Below, in pieces: positions 43,642-50,843 of a stretch of DNA of 64,000 bases; within the stretch, counting starts at the first letter, position 1; every line of letters begins with the position of its first letter. The notes beneath the pieces are model-generated. The model worked only from the letters and a program-made list of their open reading frames with translations, made no database searches and was not told the DNA's origin. The stretch is from Endomicrobiales bacterium. GTDB lineage: Bacteria; Elusimicrobiota; Endomicrobiia; Endomicrobiales; JALOBY01. Location: NCBI GenBank assembly GCA_963796955.1, contig CAWCNJ010000004.1, positions 128,001 to 192,000 on the forward strand, in the 5' to 3' direction. Both the position numbers and the translations under genes were made by a program.

Positions 43642-46152
43642 ATGGGAGCGATGCGGCGCTTTATCGTTTTGACGATAGTTGCAATGGTGTCTTACTTGGC
43701 GTGCCTTGGTGCCGCAGATGTCCCTCAAATGATGAACTTTCAAGGACAATTCTCTAGCGGGTCTATTACTCTAGATTTTTATATCTCTTCCGGCGCAACA
43801 ACCGGAATGCGGCTGCCAACAAGCAGCCCTTGGCACGAAACATTGTCTACATCAACTGCCGATGGTTATATCAGCTACCTGTTGGGCAGTCAAAGCGCGA
43901 TTCCTAAATCAATTTTCACAGATAGTTCGACGATACGATACCTTGAAATTGTAGAAAATAGCTCATCCCAATTTATGCAACTTGTCTCTGTCCCTTTTGC
44001 ATACAGGGCATCATTCTCCGACAACGCGATGTATGCTGAAAGTTTAGCAGGCGGCGCTACTATTTCAGGTGACTTAAATGTTTCTGGTTTAGTATCGATG
44101 AGTAGTGTAACAATCAATAGTGCGATTTTACGATCCGGAAGCACGGCATACGGCACAAATGCCAACACGCATATATGTCTTGGGGCCAACAGCATTACTG
44201 GAGATGTTAACAATTTCTCGTACTGTACGATCAGTGGGGGTTATGGTAACTATGCAAAAGGTGCGTATTCTTTCATTGGCGGTGGGCTAAATAACAGTGC
44301 TGGTTGTTATGGTTGGAGTGGTATAAACACTGTTATCGGTGGTGGTAGCTCGAATGTAGCAAAAGACGAATACTCGGCTATCTTAGGAGGCTGGAATAAT
44401 TCAAATGAAGGATATTGTTCGGCGATTGGTGGGGGACGAAACAACACTATAACCTATTCATCCCCGGAAAATGGCTATTACTCAACCATTCCAGGTGGCC
44501 GCGATAATGGGATAACTGGTAGTTACTGTTTTGCGGCTGGAAGGCGTGCCAAGGCTCAATCGGAAGGAGTATTCGCTTTATCAGATTCTCAAGATGCTGA
44601 TTTTGTTGTAAATTCAGACAATGTCTTTGGTTCACGCTTTAGTGGTGGCTATTGGTTTACTGGTGGGAATGTAGGTGTAGGAACAACCTCGCCTCAGTAT
44701 AAACTTCAAGTTAACGGACAATTTAGTTCAGGTAATTATTCGATATTTACATCCAGTTCGCTGGTTGGGGTAAAAGAAATTATCTTTCAGGATGGAACAA
44801 CACAAAACACTGCAAATATCCAATGGTCAGCAACTGGTAACGATATTTATCGGTCGGTAGGCAATGTTGGTATTGGTGTTCCCAATCCATCTGCGAAGTT
44901 AACCTTTGATGGTGGTTTATTGAGGTATGGAAGTTCTATGTTAGGCTCTGCGGCCAATACACATATTTGTCTTGGAATGGAAAGCACAACTGGCAGAACT
45001 ACTGGGTATAATGGGCAATACTGTACAATTACTGGTGGTTATTGTAACCAAGCAACTTCTGATTTTGCCGTTGTGGATGGTGGGCATCAAAATATAGCAT
45101 CAGGATATTCATCAAGAGTCCTTGGGGGTGAATATAATACGGCGGCTGGCGATCATTCATGCGCAATAGGAACGAAGGCTCAGGCGAACGCGCTCGGTTC
45201 CTTTGCATTAACAGATTCACAGTGGTCCTATTTTACCGTTAATTCAACTGATACATTCGGAGCAAGATTTCAGGGAGGTTATTGGTTGACCGGTGGTAAT
45301 GTTGGCATTGGGATTACCCCTAGCTCATCAACTTTAACGGTGAACGGTACAATTCTTGCAATTTCAAGTATTACCGCTGGCGCATTCGTTGGTAATGGCG
45401 CAGGGCTGACAAATCTTCCGGTTCCTGGGAATATGGTTACTGTTGATTCAATACAAACGATAACCGCGCAAAAGATATTTCAGAATTCCGTCGGGATTGG
45501 AACCGCTTCCCCAAGAACTACATTGGATGTTAATGGCGGCATAACCGCCGTCTCCAGCATCACCGCCTCCGGCGGATTCTACGGCAAAGCCTCAGGCTTG
45601 ACCGATCTACCTGTTTCTACAAATGTAGTAACAACTGACACCACTCAGAACATTTCAGGAAACAAGACCTTTACTGGAATAACTTTCGGTGTCGTGCCAA
45701 CAGGAACAGTTTTGCCTTATATAGTAAGCATATCGACGATGCCTGCGGGTTTCCTCTATTGCAACGGTCAGGTGGTTTCACGTTCGACCTACGCTACACT
45801 CTTTGCGCTTATCGGCACTGCTTTTGGTTCCGGTAACGGCAGTACTACATTTAATTTGCCTGATATGCGGGGAATGTTTCTCCGCGGAGTGGATGACGGA
45901 CGAGGATATGATTCTGAAGCTAACCGTGTAATAGGTTCTACGGAAACTGATACACTTCAAGGACATAAGCACTCAGTCCAAGCTCAAGTGGTGTCAGTAA
46001 GCAATGTTTATTTGCCCTTCACTCCTACTGCATGTCCTTTAGGAGATGGCAATACAGGTGTCCCTATATCCGATGGTATGAATGGGACCCCTCGTACATC
46101 TAAGGAAACTCGTCCACAGAACATAGCTATTGCTTATATCATCAAATACTAA
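43642..46152 (+). CDS. Exported tail-fibre-like protein with C-terminal phage tail-collar domain
   Basis: Signal peptide then VPQMMNFQG; GGxxNxA repeats; GNVGIG repeats; VPTGTVLPY...GFLYCNGQxVSRSTYATLFALIGTAFGSGNGSTTFNLPDMRGMFLRG...ETRPQNIA. Confidence 0.85.
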   Translation: MGAMRRFIVLTIVAMVSYLACLGAADVPQMMNFQGQFSSGSITLDFYISSGATTGMRLPTSSPWHETLSTSTADGYISYLLGSQSAIPKSIFTDSSTIRYLEIVENSSSQFMQLVSVPFAYRASFSDNAMYAESLAGGATISGDLNVSGLVSMSSVTINSAILRSGSTAYGTNANTHICLGANSITGDVNNFSYCTISGGYGNYAKGAYSFIGGGLNNSAGCYGWSGINTVIGGGSSNVAKDEYSAILGGWNNSNEGYCSAIGGGRNNTITYSSPENGYYSTIPGGRDNGITGSYCFAAGRRAKAQSEGVFALSDSQDADFVVNSDNVFGSRFSGGYWFTGGNVGVGTTSPQYKLQVNGQFSSGNYSIFTSSSLVGVKEIIFQDGTTQNTANIQWSATGNDIYRSVGNVGIGVPNPSAKLTFDGGLLRYGSSMLGSAANTHICLGMESTTGRTTGYNGQYCTITGGYCNQATSDFAVVDGGHQNIASGYSSRVLGGEYNTAAGDHSCAIGTKAQANALGSFALTDSQWSYFTVNSTDTFGARFQGGYWLTGGNVGIGITPSSSTLTVNGTILAISSITAGAFVGNGAGLTNLPVPGNMVTVDSIQTITAQKIFQNSVGIGTASPRTTLDVNGGITAVSSITASGGFYGKASGLTDLPVSTNVVTTDTTQNISGNKTFTGITFGVVPTGTVLPYIVSISTMPAGFLYCNGQVVSRSTYATLFALIGTAFGSGNGSTTFNLPDMRGMFLRGVDDGRGYDSEANRVIGSTETDTLQGHKHSVQAQVVSVSNVYLPFTPTACPLGDGNTGVPISDGMNGTPRTSKETRPQNIAIAYIIKY

Positions 46153-46246: not shown

Positions 46247-46275
46247 TTGACGAAATCAGGGTTTTCTGCAATAGT
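46247..46275 (+). promoter_or_regulatory. Candidate sigma70 promoter P2
   Basis: TTGACG-17 nt-AATAGT with extended TG, about 35 nt before aptamer 1. Confidence 0.45.
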
Positions 46276-46308
46276 ATTAGTGAGGGAGTCCAGATTGATC
46301 CTTCGCAT

Positions 46309-46397
46309 TGACGATAAAGGCAAACCAGATGAAAGTCTGGGGCGCAAAACCACGGGGCTTAAGATAGGGGCTATCTACGCCAGCCGGGTTACCGAAG
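46309..46397 (+). ncRNA. c-di-GMP-I (GEMM) riboswitch aptamer 1
   Basis: CGATAAAGGCAAACC-AGAT-GAAA-GTCT-GG-GGCGCAAAACCACGG...AGCCGGGTTACCGAA matches the class-I pattern; G at the G20-equivalent position. Confidence 0.9.
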
Positions 46398-46460
46398 CAG
46401 ATGTTGTTCTGTAGCTGTTTTTCATTTTGGTGTCTCAGGTCGCATAAAGACCCCTATCTC

Positions 46461-46508
46461 AGGCTACTGTGGCTCAGATGTGATGAGCGATGGTAGTCTT
46501 TGTTTTTT
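46461..46508 (+). terminator. Terminator of riboswitch 1 expression platform
   Basis: AGGCTACTGT/ATGGTAGTCT plus GCTCA/TGAGC stem, followed by TTGTTTTTT. Confidence 0.72.
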
Positions 46509-46543: not shown

Positions 46544-46702
46544 TTCCGACAAAGGCAAACCCGGTGAAAGCCGGGGACGCAAAGCCGCCTCGCATGATGC
46601 GAGGGTTCTACCCGAAAGGCGGGTGGAATACGGGTCTAAAACGACAGTCCGAAGTCCGAAGTCCGGAGTCCGGAGCATCGTTAAGACGGCCGGGTTACCG
46701 AA
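46544..46702 (+). ncRNA. c-di-GMP-I (GEMM) riboswitch aptamer 2, expanded variant
   Basis: CGACAAAGGCAAACC-CGGT-GAAA-GCCG-GGGACGCAAAGCC-[43 nt]-ACGGGTCTAAA...AAGACGGCCGGGTTACCGAA. Confidence 0.85.
46646..46673 (+). repeat. 4 x heptamer AGTCCG(A/G) in the P3 apical loop of aptamer 2
   Basis: AGTCCGA AGTCCGA AGTCCGG AGTCCGG. Confidence 0.9.
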
Positions 46703-46818
46703 GAGCTGAGAATCGTTTCCCCCGAAGAATAGGGGAGCCCAGACGATTTTTAGAAACAGTTAAGAGCACGCATAGCTTATATAATAAGCTACTCGCGCGC
46801 GAATTAACGAACTTAGGT

Positions 46819-46862
46819 AACCGGACTGCCAGACCCACACATGGCTGTTCGGTTTTTTGTTT
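46819..46862 (+). terminator. Terminator of riboswitch 2 expression platform
   Basis: AACCGGAC-T-GCC / GGC-T-GTTCGGTT stem followed by TTTTGTTT, just before the RBS of 46880. Confidence 0.7.
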
Positions 46863-46879: not shown

Positions 46880-47275
46880 ATGAAAACACGGTTCGCGATG
46901 AAAATGATGCTGTTGACGATCGGCCTGCTGCTGAACAGCTGGGGCGCCCCCCGTTTCACGGCCCAGCTCACGCAGCCGCTTGTTGTCAGCGTCACCAATT
47001 ACCCGAACCCGTTCGACAGCCGCTGCGAGAGGACCACCATCCTGCTCTCGCTGGCGCAGGAATCGCAGGTAAGCATTTCCATCTACGATCTGCTGGGTAA
47101 CATGGTGCGGCAGTTCCCTTCGATGAGCGAGGATGCCGGCACCACCAGCATTGTCTGGGATGGGACGAACGATGACAAGGAGAAAGTGGCAAAAGGCGGA
47201 TATCTGGTGCTGGTCGTGGCCAATAGTGAGGCCGGTACATCCCAGGTAATACGAAAGGTCGGCGTTTTGCATTAG
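46880..47275 (+). CDS. Signal peptide + stand-alone T9SS/FlgD-Ig-like CTD protein
   Basis: GGAG RBS; TNYPNPF...IYDLLGNMVR...WDGTNDDKEKVAKGGY...IRKVGVLH*. Confidence 0.85.
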   Translation: MKTRFAMKMMLLTIGLLLNSWGAPRFTAQLTQPLVVSVTNYPNPFDSRCERTTILLSLAQESQVSISIYDLLGNMVRQFPSMSEDAGTTSIVWDGTNDDKEKVAKGGYLVLVVANSEAGTSQVIRKVGVLH

Positions 47276-47285
47276 TGACAAAAAA

Positions 47286-48923
47286 ATGAAAAAGAAACTG
47301 GCAACCACCAATCTCATAGCGATCTTCAAGTCTCTGGCCTGCTGCGCCAAAGCGCTTGTGGTGGTTTGCGTTGTTCTCTTCGGACTTCTGATTTCGGACT
47401 CTGGACTGGTGTATGCCGACAACACCGGCGGCCAGGCTGGCCAGTTCCTTGCCTGGGGCGCCGGAGCCCGTTCTCTGGGGATGGGCGCGGCCTTCTTCGC
47501 TGTAGCTAATGACGCATCGGCAACATACTGGAACCCCGCCGGGCTGCCGCAGCTGGACCGCAAGGAGCTTATGGCGCTGCACGTAACGTTGTTCGCCGAT
47601 ACGACCTACGATTTTATTTCTTACGTACATCCGACGCCGAACCTGGGCGTTTTCGGTATAAACCTGACCCGTTTATATTCCACGGGATTTGAAAAAGTTA
47701 ACATCACGTTTGATTCCACAAAGACCGACATCGTCGACATTCAAAGCATGGGAACATTTGATGATTCCCAGACCGCCCTTACCCTGGCGTACGGCAAGAA
47801 TATCCGCGACGGCATTGCGATCGGCGGTTCGTTCAAGTATATAACCCACACGCTGGATACCTCAACGAACGGATTCGCTACCTTCGACGTAACATCGCTG
47901 GTGACCGGCGTAACTTCGGCGCTGCCGGACATGAAGATGGCCTTCGGCATAAACAACATCATGAGCAGCGCTTTCGGCGACACGGAAGACAAACTGCCGA
48001 TGATACTTCGCGCAGGCATTTCGCAGCCGTTCCTGAAGAACAAGCTGCTGCTTGCGGCCGATATGAACAAAGGCATGAGCTCGGACATGGAGTGGCACCT
48101 GGGCACCGAATACTGGCTGCTGAATTTCGCAGCATTGCGCGTGGGCTTTAAAGGCCAGCAGGGCATCAGCGAAACAACGGCCGGATTCGGTCTGAGATAC
48201 CGCGATTACGGATTTGACTATTCTTTCGGGCTGACGGATCTGGGTATGTCGCAGCGGGTGAGCGGTTCCTGGCGCTTCGGCCTCTCCGTGAACCAGAACA
48301 AGGAAGCCCTGGTTCGCCGCTACATTCAGGAAGGCATGGAAGCATACACCAAGGGTAATTTCCTTCTTGCGCTGAATCGCATGGAAGCGGCTCTTGACAT
48401 AGACCCGTCCAACAAGGACGTCCAGAAAATGTCTAAACGTCTGCAGATGGTCATAGGCTTTATACCGTCCGCCAAAGCTGAGAACGAGGAAGAGACGGCT
48501 ATCCGCAAGGGTGTGGCCGCCTTCACCGAGAACGATGACAAGGGCGCCATAAACGCCTTGCGCTACGCCTATTACAAGAACCCCGCGAACCTGAAAGTGC
48601 TGCACCTGTTGAACGCTATGGAAAAAGAAATGGGTATCAGTATCACACCGGTATATAAGGAAGAGGCGGCCGGCTTTACCATGCTGGATCAGAAAATTTA
48701 TGATGCGCGCCAGGCTATTATTGAAGGTAAATATGATCAGGCGCTGATCAAGTGCCAGGATATAATGAACCTGGAGCCGGAAAACGTGACCGCACTTGAA
48801 ATGATGGGTTCTGCCTTCTTCATGATGGACCAGCCGGAAAAGGCGAAGCAGGTATGGATGAAAGTGCTTGAGATAGATCCGTCGAACAAGGTGGTACCTG
48901 AGTTCCTTAATCAGTTGAAGTAA
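47286..48923 (+). CDS. PorV/PorQ-family beta-barrel fused to C-terminal TPR repeats
   Basis: FLAWGAGARSLGMGAA...NDASATYWNPAGL; barrel ends ...DYSF...QRVSGSWRF; then about 200 aa of TPR-like helices (ALDIDPSN, LEPEN, LEIDPSN). Confidence 0.87.
   Translation: MKKKLATTNLIAIFKSLACCAKALVVVCVVLFGLLISDSGLVYADNTGGQAGQFLAWGAGARSLGMGAAFFAVANDASATYWNPAGLPQLDRKELMALHVTLFADTTYDFISYVHPTPNLGVFGINLTRLYSTGFEKVNITFDSTKTDIVDIQSMGTFDDSQTALTLAYGKNIRDGIAIGGSFKYITHTLDTSTNGFATFDVTSLVTGVTSALPDMKMAFGINNIMSSAFGDTEDKLPMILRAGISQPFLKNKLLLAADMNKGMSSDMEWHLGTEYWLLNFAALRVGFKGQQGISETTAGFGLRYRDYGFDYSFGLTDLGMSQRVSGSWRFGLSVNQNKEALVRRYIQEGMEAYTKGNFLLALNRMEAALDIDPSNKDVQKMSKRLQMVIGFIPSAKAENEEETAIRKGVAAFTENDDKGAINALRYAYYKNPANLKVLHLLNAMEKEMGISITPVYKEEAAGFTMLDQKIYDARQAIIEGKYDQALIKCQDIMNLEPENVTALEMMGSAFFMMDQPEKAKQVWMKVLEIDPSNKVVPEFLNQLK
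47379..47408 (+). repeat. 4 degenerate heptamers (TTCGGAC-like) inside a signal-peptide coding region
   Basis: TTCGGAC TTCTGAT TTCGGAC TCTGGAC; reverse complement of the aptamer-2 loop repeat. Confidence 0.75.
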
Positions 48924-48996
48924 AATATAAGAGTATCTAAAAGGATCTGGTTTAAAAAGATGCAACAGCTTACAAAAGTTTTTAAACAAAACACGC

Positions 48997-49041
48997 TGAA
49001 AAGCCCGACACTCTGTGAAAAAACAGGGAGCCGGCTTTTCA
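48997..49041 (+). other. Intergenic hairpin between PorV-TPR and the FliF-FliG gene
   Basis: TGAAAAGCC...GGCTTTTCA outer stem with CTCTGT/ACAGGG inner stem; function unclear. Confidence 0.5.
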
Positions 49042-49073
49042 TTGCCTTATACCATATTCAACAGGAGCTCATT

Positions 49074-50843
49074 ATGAAATTGGTCGCGCGGGCGCTGTTC
49101 TTCTGTCTGCTGGTGCTGATGCCGGCCTTTGCCGCATCCACCGACAACAGCGGCGGGGGTAAGACCGCCGAGATTTCATTGCTTGAACAGGAATCAAAAT
49201 TTGAGAAAGACAAGTCGGACTATCTTCAGCAGAACGTGGTAGACAAGATACTGGGGCCCGGCAACGCCGTGGTGATCGTTGACGTGGAGCTGGGCATAGA
49301 GACCAAAGTTACGAACCAGGGCGCGAAAGAGAAAAAAACCGAGCGCAAGAAGCGCCTCGGTGAAGTGGAATATCTGCTGCCCGGCGTGCCGAACCCGAAG
49401 TCTGTCGCGAACGAATCCCAGCCGGGCGAATCGAAAGAAGAGACGGGAGCCGCGGAAGAAACGAAAACAGAATCAAAAACGGTCATAAAGAAGCTGCAGG
49501 TAACGGTGCTTTACGATGAAAAAATAGTCCAGGAGAAACTGGATACCGTTAAAGAAGCTATTATAAATTTCCTTAAGCTGGACCCGAAGCGCGGCGACAA
49601 GATAGAGTTCAAGAAAACAAAATTCACCAGCGGATTCTTCGAAGAAATGATGAAGCCGCTGATACTGATTCCTCTTATCATAGCGCTGCTGGTATTGTTC
49701 TTTCTGTTCGGGCCGTTGGCCAGTTTTTTCCGCAATTATGTGCGTACGCTTGCTGAACACGGCGGAACAGAAGTTACCGTCGACTCAAAATTTGAAGGTG
49801 ATAAGGGCGATGAGGAAGGAGCCGGTGGCGCAGGCGGCGGTGGCGTGGGAGAAGGCATTCTCGGCGAAGGCGACGGTAAGAAATATATACCTTTTGAATA
49901 TATAAACGATGACAATCTGAAAAGGCTTGTCTATCTGGTAAAGCGCGAGCCGCCTGAAACGATATCGCTGGTGGTCAGCTACCTGAAGCCCGAGTACGTT
50001 AAGGAACTGCTGAACGCCCTGACACCGGAACTGCAGGCGAAGGTGGCCACCGAAATGGCGACGATCCGCTCGCTGGACATGGATGATGTTCAGAAAGTGG
50101 ATAACTACATAAAGGAAAAGATAGAGTTCCTTATCGGCGGATTGTATCACCTGCTTAACGTGCTTGATAAAGTAGACCCGATCACGCAGTCCAATATATT
50201 CGAATACCTTAAGAATGAAAAACCGGACCTGTATGAAATGGTGCGGAAATTCGTGCTGATGTTCGACGATATACCCAATTTCCCGGACCAGGCGATGCAG
50301 GTGATAATCCGCGAGCTTAAGACCCAGGATATGGCGAAAGCACTGCGCAACGCCGAGCCCGAGATCATGAACAAATTCCTTGCCAATATGTCGACGAACG
50401 CTTCCGCCATTTTAAAAGAAGAAATGGAGTACGGCAGGCCCCTTACCGATGCCGAGGTTGAGGAAGGCCGCAAACAGCTGATGGATGTGGTAAAGAAGCT
50501 GGAGGCGGAGAACAAAATATTCCTGCGCGAAAAGCCGAAGTCCGGCGTGCTGGAAGGCCTGGAGGCCGGTAGCAACGATAACACCAGCTACAACGAATAT
50601 TATCAGGCAGGCGTGGGTTCTTATGAAGCGGGGGAGTACGACGCGGCCTTGCCTTACCTTGAATACTGCACACAGCTGGATCCTACACAGCCGGCGGGCT
50701 TTCAATATCTGGGCGCTGCATATTACGCGCTTGGGCGTACCGCCGAAGCGGTAGCAGCGTACGAAAAAGTGGTTGAGCTGGACCCGACCAACGAAGAACT
50801 AAAAAACTGGCTTGCTTCGCAGAGCGCCAATAAACTCGCATAA
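49074..50843 (+). CDS. FliF C-terminal (RBM3/beta-collar)-TM-FliG middle + C-terminal domain-TPR fusion protein
   Basis: AGGAG RBS then MKLVARALFFCLLVLMPAFA; VDKILGPGNAVVIVDVEL, LPGVP, IKKLQVTVL, LDPKRGDKIEF (FliF-like); one TM helix; PFEY...EPPETISLVVSYL (FliG_M); GG...LMFDD...KFLANMS...LKEEMEY (FliG_C); TPRs. Confidence 0.85.
   Translation: MKLVARALFFCLLVLMPAFAASTDNSGGGKTAEISLLEQESKFEKDKSDYLQQNVVDKILGPGNAVVIVDVELGIETKVTNQGAKEKKTERKKRLGEVEYLLPGVPNPKSVANESQPGESKEETGAAEETKTESKTVIKKLQVTVLYDEKIVQEKLDTVKEAIINFLKLDPKRGDKIEFKKTKFTSGFFEEMMKPLILIPLIIALLVLFFLFGPLASFFRNYVRTLAEHGGTEVTVDSKFEGDKGDEEGAGGAGGGGVGEGILGEGDGKKYIPFEYINDDNLKRLVYLVKREPPETISLVVSYLKPEYVKELLNALTPELQAKVATEMATIRSLDMDDVQKVDNYIKEKIEFLIGGLYHLLNVLDKVDPITQSNIFEYLKNEKPDLYEMVRKFVLMFDDIPNFPDQAMQVIIRELKTQDMAKALRNAEPEIMNKFLANMSTNASAILKEEMEYGRPLTDAEVEEGRKQLMDVVKKLEAENKIFLREKPKSGVLEGLEAGSNDNTSYNEYYQAGVGSYEAGEYDAALPYLEYCTQLDPTQPAGFQYLGAAYYALGRTAEAVAAYEKVVELDPTNEELKNWLASQSANKLA

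Follow-up and report, generated by a model that had tools for sequence, protein, structure and literature searches.

The leader of an operon in an Endomicrobiales bacterium contains two c-di-GMP-I riboswitch aptamers, the second of which has 43 additional nucleotides in the 5' strand of its P3 helix, and the question raised by this locus is whether the additional segment reflects damage, a stray repeat or a designed element of the sensor and, in the last case, what its contribution would be. The DNA analysed (referred to as the window) is a stretch of 64,000 nucleotides, positions 128,001 to 192,000 of the forward strand of contig CAWCNJ010000004.1 in assembly GCA_963796955.1 (2.1 Mb, 11 contigs, 81% complete, labelled G000), and positions are those of the window unless a genome label is given. 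Comparison of the locus with its relatives indicates that the hairpin-pair insert is a conserved design variant of a known sensor, not damage or a stray repeat, because the same layout, with compensating base changes, recurs in many relatives.

Organization of the leader and fold of its second aptamer

The leader comprises, in this order, a promoter-like site, aptamer 1, a terminator-like hairpin, aptamer 2, two terminator-like hairpins, a ribosome-binding site and the ATG at 46880 (Table 1). A metagenomic locus, L076, is the ortholog of the whole leader (81% identity), with the promoter block, the canonical first aptamer and the terminators in common; about 44 nt at 46397-46440, located between aptamer 1 and its terminator-like hairpin, are missing in L076. 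One RNA-library contig from a relative starts at 46294, which hints at the promoter predicted upstream of this position. A simple terminator scanner listed no terminator on the + strand, and the terminators of the leader were therefore taken from folds only. Just before the second terminator-like hairpin downstream of aptamer 2, the motif GGUAACC (46816-46822) is complementary to GGGUUAC of aptamer 2 (46693-46699). In a search of sequencing runs, no run contained at least half of the window's words (best share 0.21).

Regarding neighboring genes, the operon behind the leader includes a UPF0164/TPR protein (47286-48923) followed by a 627-aa protein (48960-50843) composed of a FliF C-terminal-like region, FliG middle and C-terminal domains and TPR repeats. 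Upstream of the leader, an 836-aa secreted repeat protein (43642-46152) has a C-terminal phage tail collar domain (Pfam Collar, E 2.4e-21).

Table 1. Features of the tandem leader and its first gene (positions in the window).
Feature	Position	Strand	Basis or remarks
Promoter-like site, sigma-70 type (TTGACG, 17 nt, AATAGT)	46247..46275	+	Pattern scan; block near-identical in metagenomic ortholog L076
Aptamer 1, canonical c-di-GMP-I without insert	46309..46396	+	RF01051, 84.0 bits, E 4.3e-15
Terminator-like hairpin and U run, 3' of aptamer 1	46461..46508	+	Minimum-energy fold; conserved in L076
Aptamer 2, c-di-GMP-I with two expansions	46544..46702	+	RF01051, 45.8 bits, E 9.3e-06; variant model R1, 76.3 bits
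43-nt insert, P3 5' strand, between P3a (AGCC) and bulged A	46587..46629	+	Sequence, fold
Hairpin A, 7 bp, loop UGA (CCUCGCA-UGA-UGCGAGG)	46588..46604	+	Fold
Hairpin B, 10 bp, loop AAAGG (GUUCUACCCG-AAAGG-CGGGUGGAAU)	46605..46629	+	Fold
Conserved unpaired A, counterpart of the canonical P3 bulge (U53 of Vc2)	46630	+	Rfam alignment and excerpts of PMC11705072
Four 7-nt repeats (GTCCGRA), P3 terminal loop	46647..46674	+	About 29 further extra nt; outside the conserved variant
Terminator-like hairpin and U run, 3' of aptamer 2	46706..46753	+	Fold; L076 keeps arms, loop varies
Second terminator-like hairpin and U run	46821..46858	+	Fold; conserved in L076
Putative first regulated gene, 131-aa signal-peptide protein, FlgD Ig-like / T9SS-tail-like domain	46880..47275	+	Pfam FlgD_ig, E 6.4e-11

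Investigation of aptamer 2 with the Rfam model gave a match over the full model (1-87) above the gathering score of 35 bits. A poor covariance-model score had been anticipated in a first-pass annotation of the letters, and this is the case both in the window, where aptamer 2 scores 45.8 bits compared with 84.0 bits for aptamer 1, and in relatives, the variant of one of which (32.2 bits) falls under the Rfam cut-off. The first hairpin of the GEMM motif has been described as 2-bp and 6-bp stems with a 3-nt internal loop, a GNRA tetraloop and an AAA linker to the second hairpin (GEMM text of PMC1950547), and the same arrangement was detected in aptamer 2 (GC-AAA-CCCGGU-GAAA-GCCGGG-GAC-GC-AAA), its pairs being 100% paired in a 19-row alignment of variants. 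According to the available excerpts of PMC3764141, G20, A47, A48 and C92 are key ligand nucleotides and the C44-G83 pair keeps the helices parallel. With Vc2 numbers transferred to consensus columns by a mapping made in this analysis, alignment of aptamer 2 to the Rfam consensus places a G before GCAAAC, the AAA linker and the UUACC 3' end at the ligand pocket.

The docking nucleotides, i.e., the C of GAC and the G ahead of CCGGG, are also present, and the CUAA...UAAGAC segment lines up with the tetraloop-receptor region of other variants, a region that the Rfam alignment skips as a local end. The ligand-contact and GAAA/receptor elements had been described in the first-pass annotation as looking intact; P2 with its GAAA loop, the AAA linker, the docking nucleotides GAC/GG and the 3' strand CCGGGUUACC agree with the consensus. 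The core can be aligned both with the consensus and with 18 further variants, and sequence comparison establishes aptamer 2 as a genuine c-di-GMP-I aptamer belonging to a conserved structural subclass in Elusimicrobiota.

Both aptamers of the window have G at the position aligned with G20 of Vc2, the column before GCAAAC. An A was observed at this position in six of 18 variants (L080, L067, L032, L086, L030 and L065) and in several canonical relatives. In Geobacter, A at the G20 position marks 3'3'-cGAMP-selective GEMM-I aptamers.

Regarding the insert itself, aptamer 1 reads AAAACC-ACGG with no gap (46347-46356) and aptamer 2 reads AAAGCC (46581-46586), the 43 nt and ACGG (46630-46633), and the isolated insert folds exactly into the two hairpins that the first-pass annotation had drawn. 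The insert alone has a predicted energy of -25.7 kcal/mol; its shuffled versions average -11.66 (sd 2.36; z -5.95), and none of 200 folds as stably. When the entire 601-nt leader is folded, all 17 hairpin pairs but one, a loop-end pair at 0.66, reach probabilities of 0.92-1.0, and the consensus riboswitch structure with a four-way junction is only 1.9 kcal/mol dearer than the unconstrained minimum (-67.6 vs -69.5 kcal/mol). The multiway junction proposed earlier is accordingly specified as a four-way junction of P3a (AGCC/GGUU), hairpins A and B and P3b (CGG/CCG), in which G46587 and A46630 alone are unpaired and the P3 3' strand is unbroken. The insertion site coincides with the single bulged nucleotide of the Rfam consensus, in the 5' strand of the second hairpin and four model pairs above its base (the second hairpin is named P3 here, as in the first-pass annotation, and P2 in Weinberg et al., 2007). 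Aptamer 2 has 103 nt in place of 31 model positions of RF01051; the continuous P3 with a lone bulge near the base, a feature of that family, is replaced by a P3 with a two-hairpin segment of 43 nt directly 5' of the bulged A, and despite the insert both P3 segments and the 3' strand still pair.

Recurrence, pairing and gene contexts of the hairpin pair

The concern, voiced in the first-pass annotation, that the insert might be a common dispersed repeat was not borne out for the 43 nt, a sequence that the genome contains only once: blastn-short searches with the insert and with each hairpin against the 81%-complete assembly returned only their own locus, the next-best match being 15 nt, and the 43 nt were rejected as a dispersed repeat or miniature mobile element since no near-identical second copy was found there. 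The 7-nt array in the P3 loop is, unlike the insert, a dispersed repeat. Arrays of three or four GTCCGGA-like units, which are nearly self-complementary, occur 19 times in the assembly, and two of them are located, in opposite orientation, in the P3 terminal loops of the genome's two branched aptamers (46647-46674 and G000:C4:112841-112868); the array is missing in L076. Long P3 terminal loops of short repeats were also observed at G004:C1:22437-22581, G005:C6:4699-4845, G009:C28:61807-61962, G009:C8:105709-105869 and G081:C225 (L126); the repeats in these Elusimicrobiota loops look genome-specific, are about 7 nt long by eye and are able to pair into long hairpins. Short repeats seem to land commonly in the P3 loop.

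The insert had been treated in the first-pass annotation as a one-off, which does not hold, as it belongs to a conserved subclass of 23 distinct aptamers, from Elusimicrobiota genomes and metagenome contigs, with the same two-hairpin layout at the same site; one of them is in L076. Within G000, the third RF01051 match (G000:C4:112735, outside the window) is a paralog with a 5' half identical to aptamer 2 at 43/44 nt and, at the same site, two different hairpins (GCCCGG-loop-CCGGGC and AUCACGCGA-loop-UCGCGUGGU). At the level of the order, 11 of 61 genomes have RF01051 matches and the layout was detected in nine of the 43 matches, in seven genomes. A strict IUPAC pattern scanned against a genome collection (one genome per species) yielded 22 loci, nine of them true variants (eight labelled Elusimicrobia or Endomicrobiales and one Ignavibacteria), and the same pattern in metagenomes yielded 26 loci, 15 of them true (seven new distinct sequences) and 11 false; the pattern being strict, these counts say nothing on absence in other phyla. 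The Ignavibacteria-labelled record, L047, is the same contig as G113:C84, which is placed in the class of the window genome, so that label and placement conflict. Matches outside Elusimicrobiota (13/22 and 11/26 loci) were rejected as canonical Bacillota or Actinomycetota aptamers with an unrelated downstream ACGG..CTAA and provide no evidence for the variant beyond this phylum, and the false loci served as negative controls: fold z scores were -2.5 to -6.2 for true inserts and +0.62 to -2.49 for the 24 false loci (13 + 11).

Alignment of nine and then eight variants with MAFFT left the hairpins out of register, and a covariance model (R1) was therefore built from five well-aligned variants and the remaining variants were re-aligned with it. 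R1 scores of 63.5-150 bits were obtained for 18 distinct variants, compared with at most 55.3 bits for canonical aptamers, with the exception of one close canonical relative (69.4 bits). When R1 was applied to 151 sampled genomes of the phylum, 44 of them had a match, and five more variants, checked by folding, were obtained, including one of another class (G066:C9) with a GUAA loop and without a tetraloop receptor. The insertion site has either no hairpin or exactly two in every match inspected (43 RF01051 matches, both pattern listings and 22 R1 loci). In three tandem leaders of class-level relatives (L118 271-385/G101:C19; L094 497-614/G145:C319; L095/L047, G113:C84:70031-70166), the second aptamer has the 5'-side insert and the first aptamer has a different two-hairpin insert, on the P3 3' side (between distal hairpin and 3' strand).

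Covariation was evaluated in the model-fitted alignment A4, comprising 19 rows, i.e., 18 variants and one non-variant row gapped in the hairpins. All modelled pairs of hairpin A (6/6, 98.1% of cells paired) and hairpin B (7/7, 100% of cells paired) have changed on both sides. Over the whole structure 98.3% of cells are paired vs 76.3% in shuffles, none of 500 shuffles reaches any observed measure and controls in which the partner was shifted by 1-3 columns bring pairing down to 32-49%, figures to be read in the light of an alignment that leans to the structure and of kinship among rows, which inflates the shuffle statistics. Checks independent of the A4 fit come from L076 and from RNA-library contigs. 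In a MAFFT alignment of the window with L076, the insert differs by eight stem substitutions, which combine into four double compensatory changes: in hairpin A, C-G to U-A and U-A to C-G; in hairpin B, A-U to G-C and G-C to U-A. One loop-end pair is lost. RNA-library contigs of relatives from two studies (80-95% like the window) carry paired changes as well: 46614G>T is accompanied by 46620C>A in both studies, and 46590T>C by 46602A>G in one; these contigs come from relatives, are no proof of transcription and are uninformative in the parts they leave uncovered. As judged from these compensatory changes, the base pairing of both hairpins is demonstrably under selection, and their sequences, loops and lengths are not.

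Among the variants, the stems vary in length and sequence, the loops vary as well (3-11 nt or more) and the insert ranges from 31 to 62 nt. Kept features are the abutting hairpins, a 5' base of hairpin B that reads R-Y-Y-Y (17-18 of 18 rows) and the unpaired A followed by CGG in all 18 core variants, with U before the A in 14. The 3'-strand bulge reads GG in 18/18 variants and AG (24) or GG (7) in 31 canonical relatives, a contrast confounded by relatedness. Two candidate interactions were tried and rejected: a function of the insert as an expression-platform part (anti-SD or anti-terminator), given that the hairpin sequences vary freely and GAAGG and the terminators are conserved, and a pairing that would join AAACGA of the distal P3 strand to UCGUUU of a terminator arm in the window, which is lost in L076.

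Regarding gene contexts, 11 of the 18 variants stand alone 7-11 nt 5' of the ATG of a signal-peptide family of about 168 aa, with GAAGG overlapping the aptamer 3' end, and four precede a small FlgD_ig-like protein, the window being one of these and L076 a fifth by leader alignment; one variant precedes an fn3 protein and one context is unclear. Because most stand alone 7-11 nt before a start codon, the variants are best regarded as working switches. The signal-peptide family (about 166-170 aa, motif D-L-D-x-R-D-x-x-N, no Pfam match) is found 7-11 nt 3' of a c-di-GMP-I aptamer in many Elusimicrobiota. Copies behind aptamers were detected in L003 (1671-2168, G000:C4), L031, L022, L032 and L033, with partial copies in L065, L067, L070, L080, L086 and L088, and copies behind canonical aptamers in L038, L010, L029 and L041. 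Canonical aptamers precede the family at the same distance in four genomes, and in five genomes a canonical aptamer occupies the second position of the FlgD_ig leader. The insert is present only in the leader of the 168-aa family in G003, G005 and G006, only in the FlgD_ig leader in G012, in both in G000 and in neither in G007; this mosaic presence therefore requires several gains, losses or exchanges, and the insert is facultative and dispensable in evolution.

Possible role of the insert at the P3 hinge

In the available excerpts of PMC11705072, U53 of Vc2 pairs with G87 in the free RNA (NMR); during folding with Mg2+ and ligand, U53 flips out, C52 pairs with G87 and U53 stacks on A82 beside the docking nucleotide G83, the helix with the U53 bulge undergoing the main rearrangements on docking. 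At the position of A82, G is found in all 18 variants counted. Four-way junctions can adopt two stacking arrangements into coaxial helices, only one of which keeps P3 straight. By analogy with Vc2, the backbone at the bulge would be a permissive, extrahelical site, and the insertion point would be the P3 hinge, which in Vc2 changes register and flips out as P2 and P3 dock. P3a, hairpin A, hairpin B and P3b meet immediately 5' of the bulged nucleotide in a four-way junction nearly free of linkers. Only a hairpin pair, unlike a single hairpin, would leave P3a stacked on P3b as in the canonical fold, and the insert would come as a pair because a four-way junction alone keeps the two segments stacked. 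Located at the hinge, the insert would most likely set the register or rigidity of P3 and in this way tune folding, docking and ligand response; in the leader of the window, the second of two serial switches would then respond differently from the first.

The best explanation overall, held with about even confidence, would be a conserved c-di-GMP-I subclass in which the hairpin pair at the P3 hinge tunes folding, docking or ligand response and is not a second sensor. The insert would most likely be a fold-tuning peripheral module, with the reservation that the model, Vc2, is a different aptamer with U in place of A at the bulge. The main and equally simple rival to fold tuning is a merely tolerated expansion, in which the exposed backbone of the bulge accepts a self-contained hairpin pair and pairing is kept only to spare the aptamer, a credible minority reading. 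The presence or absence of the insert before the same gene families fits such an expansion equally well, stem sequences, loops and lengths (31-62 nt) are free to vary, folded Vc2 has its bulged nucleotide outside the helix (excerpts of PMC11705072), the P3 loops of the same aptamers also take unrelated repeats and selection for pairing would be expected anyway, to avoid misfolding of the aptamer. A tolerated expansion accounts less readily for the restriction to exactly two hairpins or none in every match inspected, for a layout that spans several families and at least two classes, for the linker-free junction with R-Y-Y-Y at the base of hairpin B (17-18/18 rows) and for the association of the insert with G at the A82 position in 18/18 variants.

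A second input, i.e., binding of a protein, an ion or another RNA by the hairpin pair or junction, or a flip between stacking conformers, so that the aptamer would sense more than c-di-GMP, is considered improbable. Neither loop has a conserved nucleotide, internal-loop motifs are lacking, the neighborhood offers no consistent candidate partner gene and the variants occur in at least three gene contexts, against which the architecture conserved at the hinge beside the P2-P3 docking contact and the two stackings open to a four-way junction can be set. The first-pass annotation had suggested tuning of affinity or kinetics, or a second input; with neither loops nor stem sequences conserved, the evidence tilts towards a role in the fold or hinge and offers nothing for a second ligand. 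That a mobile or dispersed repeat (a miniature transposon or REP-like element) landed in P3, or that aptamer 2 is a decaying pseudo-aptamer, is very improbable: although the dispersed 7-nt array is indeed found in the P3 terminal loop of aptamer 2, the 43 nt occur only once in the 2.1-Mb assembly (81% complete; best other match 15 nt), site and layout are conserved and the sequence is not, the core nucleotides are intact and the standalone variants sit on ribosome-binding sites.

Beyond fold tuning as such, the hairpin pair may be a built-in regulator of the P3 hinge, with two junction stackings of which only one would hold P3 sufficiently straight for the tetraloop-receptor contact and the C44-G83 pair, gating docking and thereby setting the c-di-GMP threshold and speed, a reading that is unlikely. 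If it were true, threshold and speed might depend instead on Mg2+, temperature or a bound factor, tandem leaders would be two sensors of one ligand with deliberately different set-points and hairpin-pair insertion would be a modular natural form of riboswitch retuning that may recur at other sites or in other phyla.

Significance and comparison with known c-di-GMP riboswitches

The c-di-GMP-I riboswitches are among the best-studied classes, and their aptamer serves both as a model of RNA folding and as a scaffold for biosensors. The variants, with a natural, conserved branch at the very nucleotide that is flipped out on folding, form a ready set with matched insert-free relatives before the same genes, in which the influence of peripheral junctions on docking, affinity and kinetics can be tested. 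As the insert halves the Rfam score and drops the aptamer of at least one relative below the cut-off, c-di-GMP regulons of Elusimicrobiota are under-counted. The variants also point to putative c-di-GMP-controlled genes that are unstudied, namely the 168-aa secreted family without Pfam match and the operon of the FlgD-Ig-like protein.

In common with canonical c-di-GMP-I aptamers (RF01051, Vc2), aptamer 2 has the P2 stem of 2 + 6 bp, the AAA/GAC internal loop, the GAAA loop and the AAA linker as well as the receptor-like CUAA/UAAG in P3, the 3' strand CCGGGUUACC and the G before GCAAAC. It differs in that the P3 5' strand is broken by two hairpins (31-62 nt among the variants) exactly 5' of the bulge, forming a four-way junction, and in an Rfam score that is roughly halved. 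The GEMM motif as first described has two adjacent hairpins, P2 stems of variable length, bulges near the base, bulged A residues and frequent tandems (Weinberg et al., 2007; GEMM text of PMC1950547). The stem is branched here, whereas the GEMM text of that account has length variation and bulged A residues, and no description of a branched P3 in c-di-GMP-I was found in a full-text literature search and in that text. Tandem c-di-GMP riboswitches are described for delta-proteobacteria in the GEMM text of PMC1950547 and as Bc3-5 of Bacillus thuringiensis in the abstract of PMC4759541. Like these tandems, as far as described in those portions of the two sources, the leader of the window has two aptamers, each followed by terminator-like hairpins; it differs from them in combining a canonical and a branched aptamer in one leader, an asymmetry that recurs in the relatives G012 and L076.
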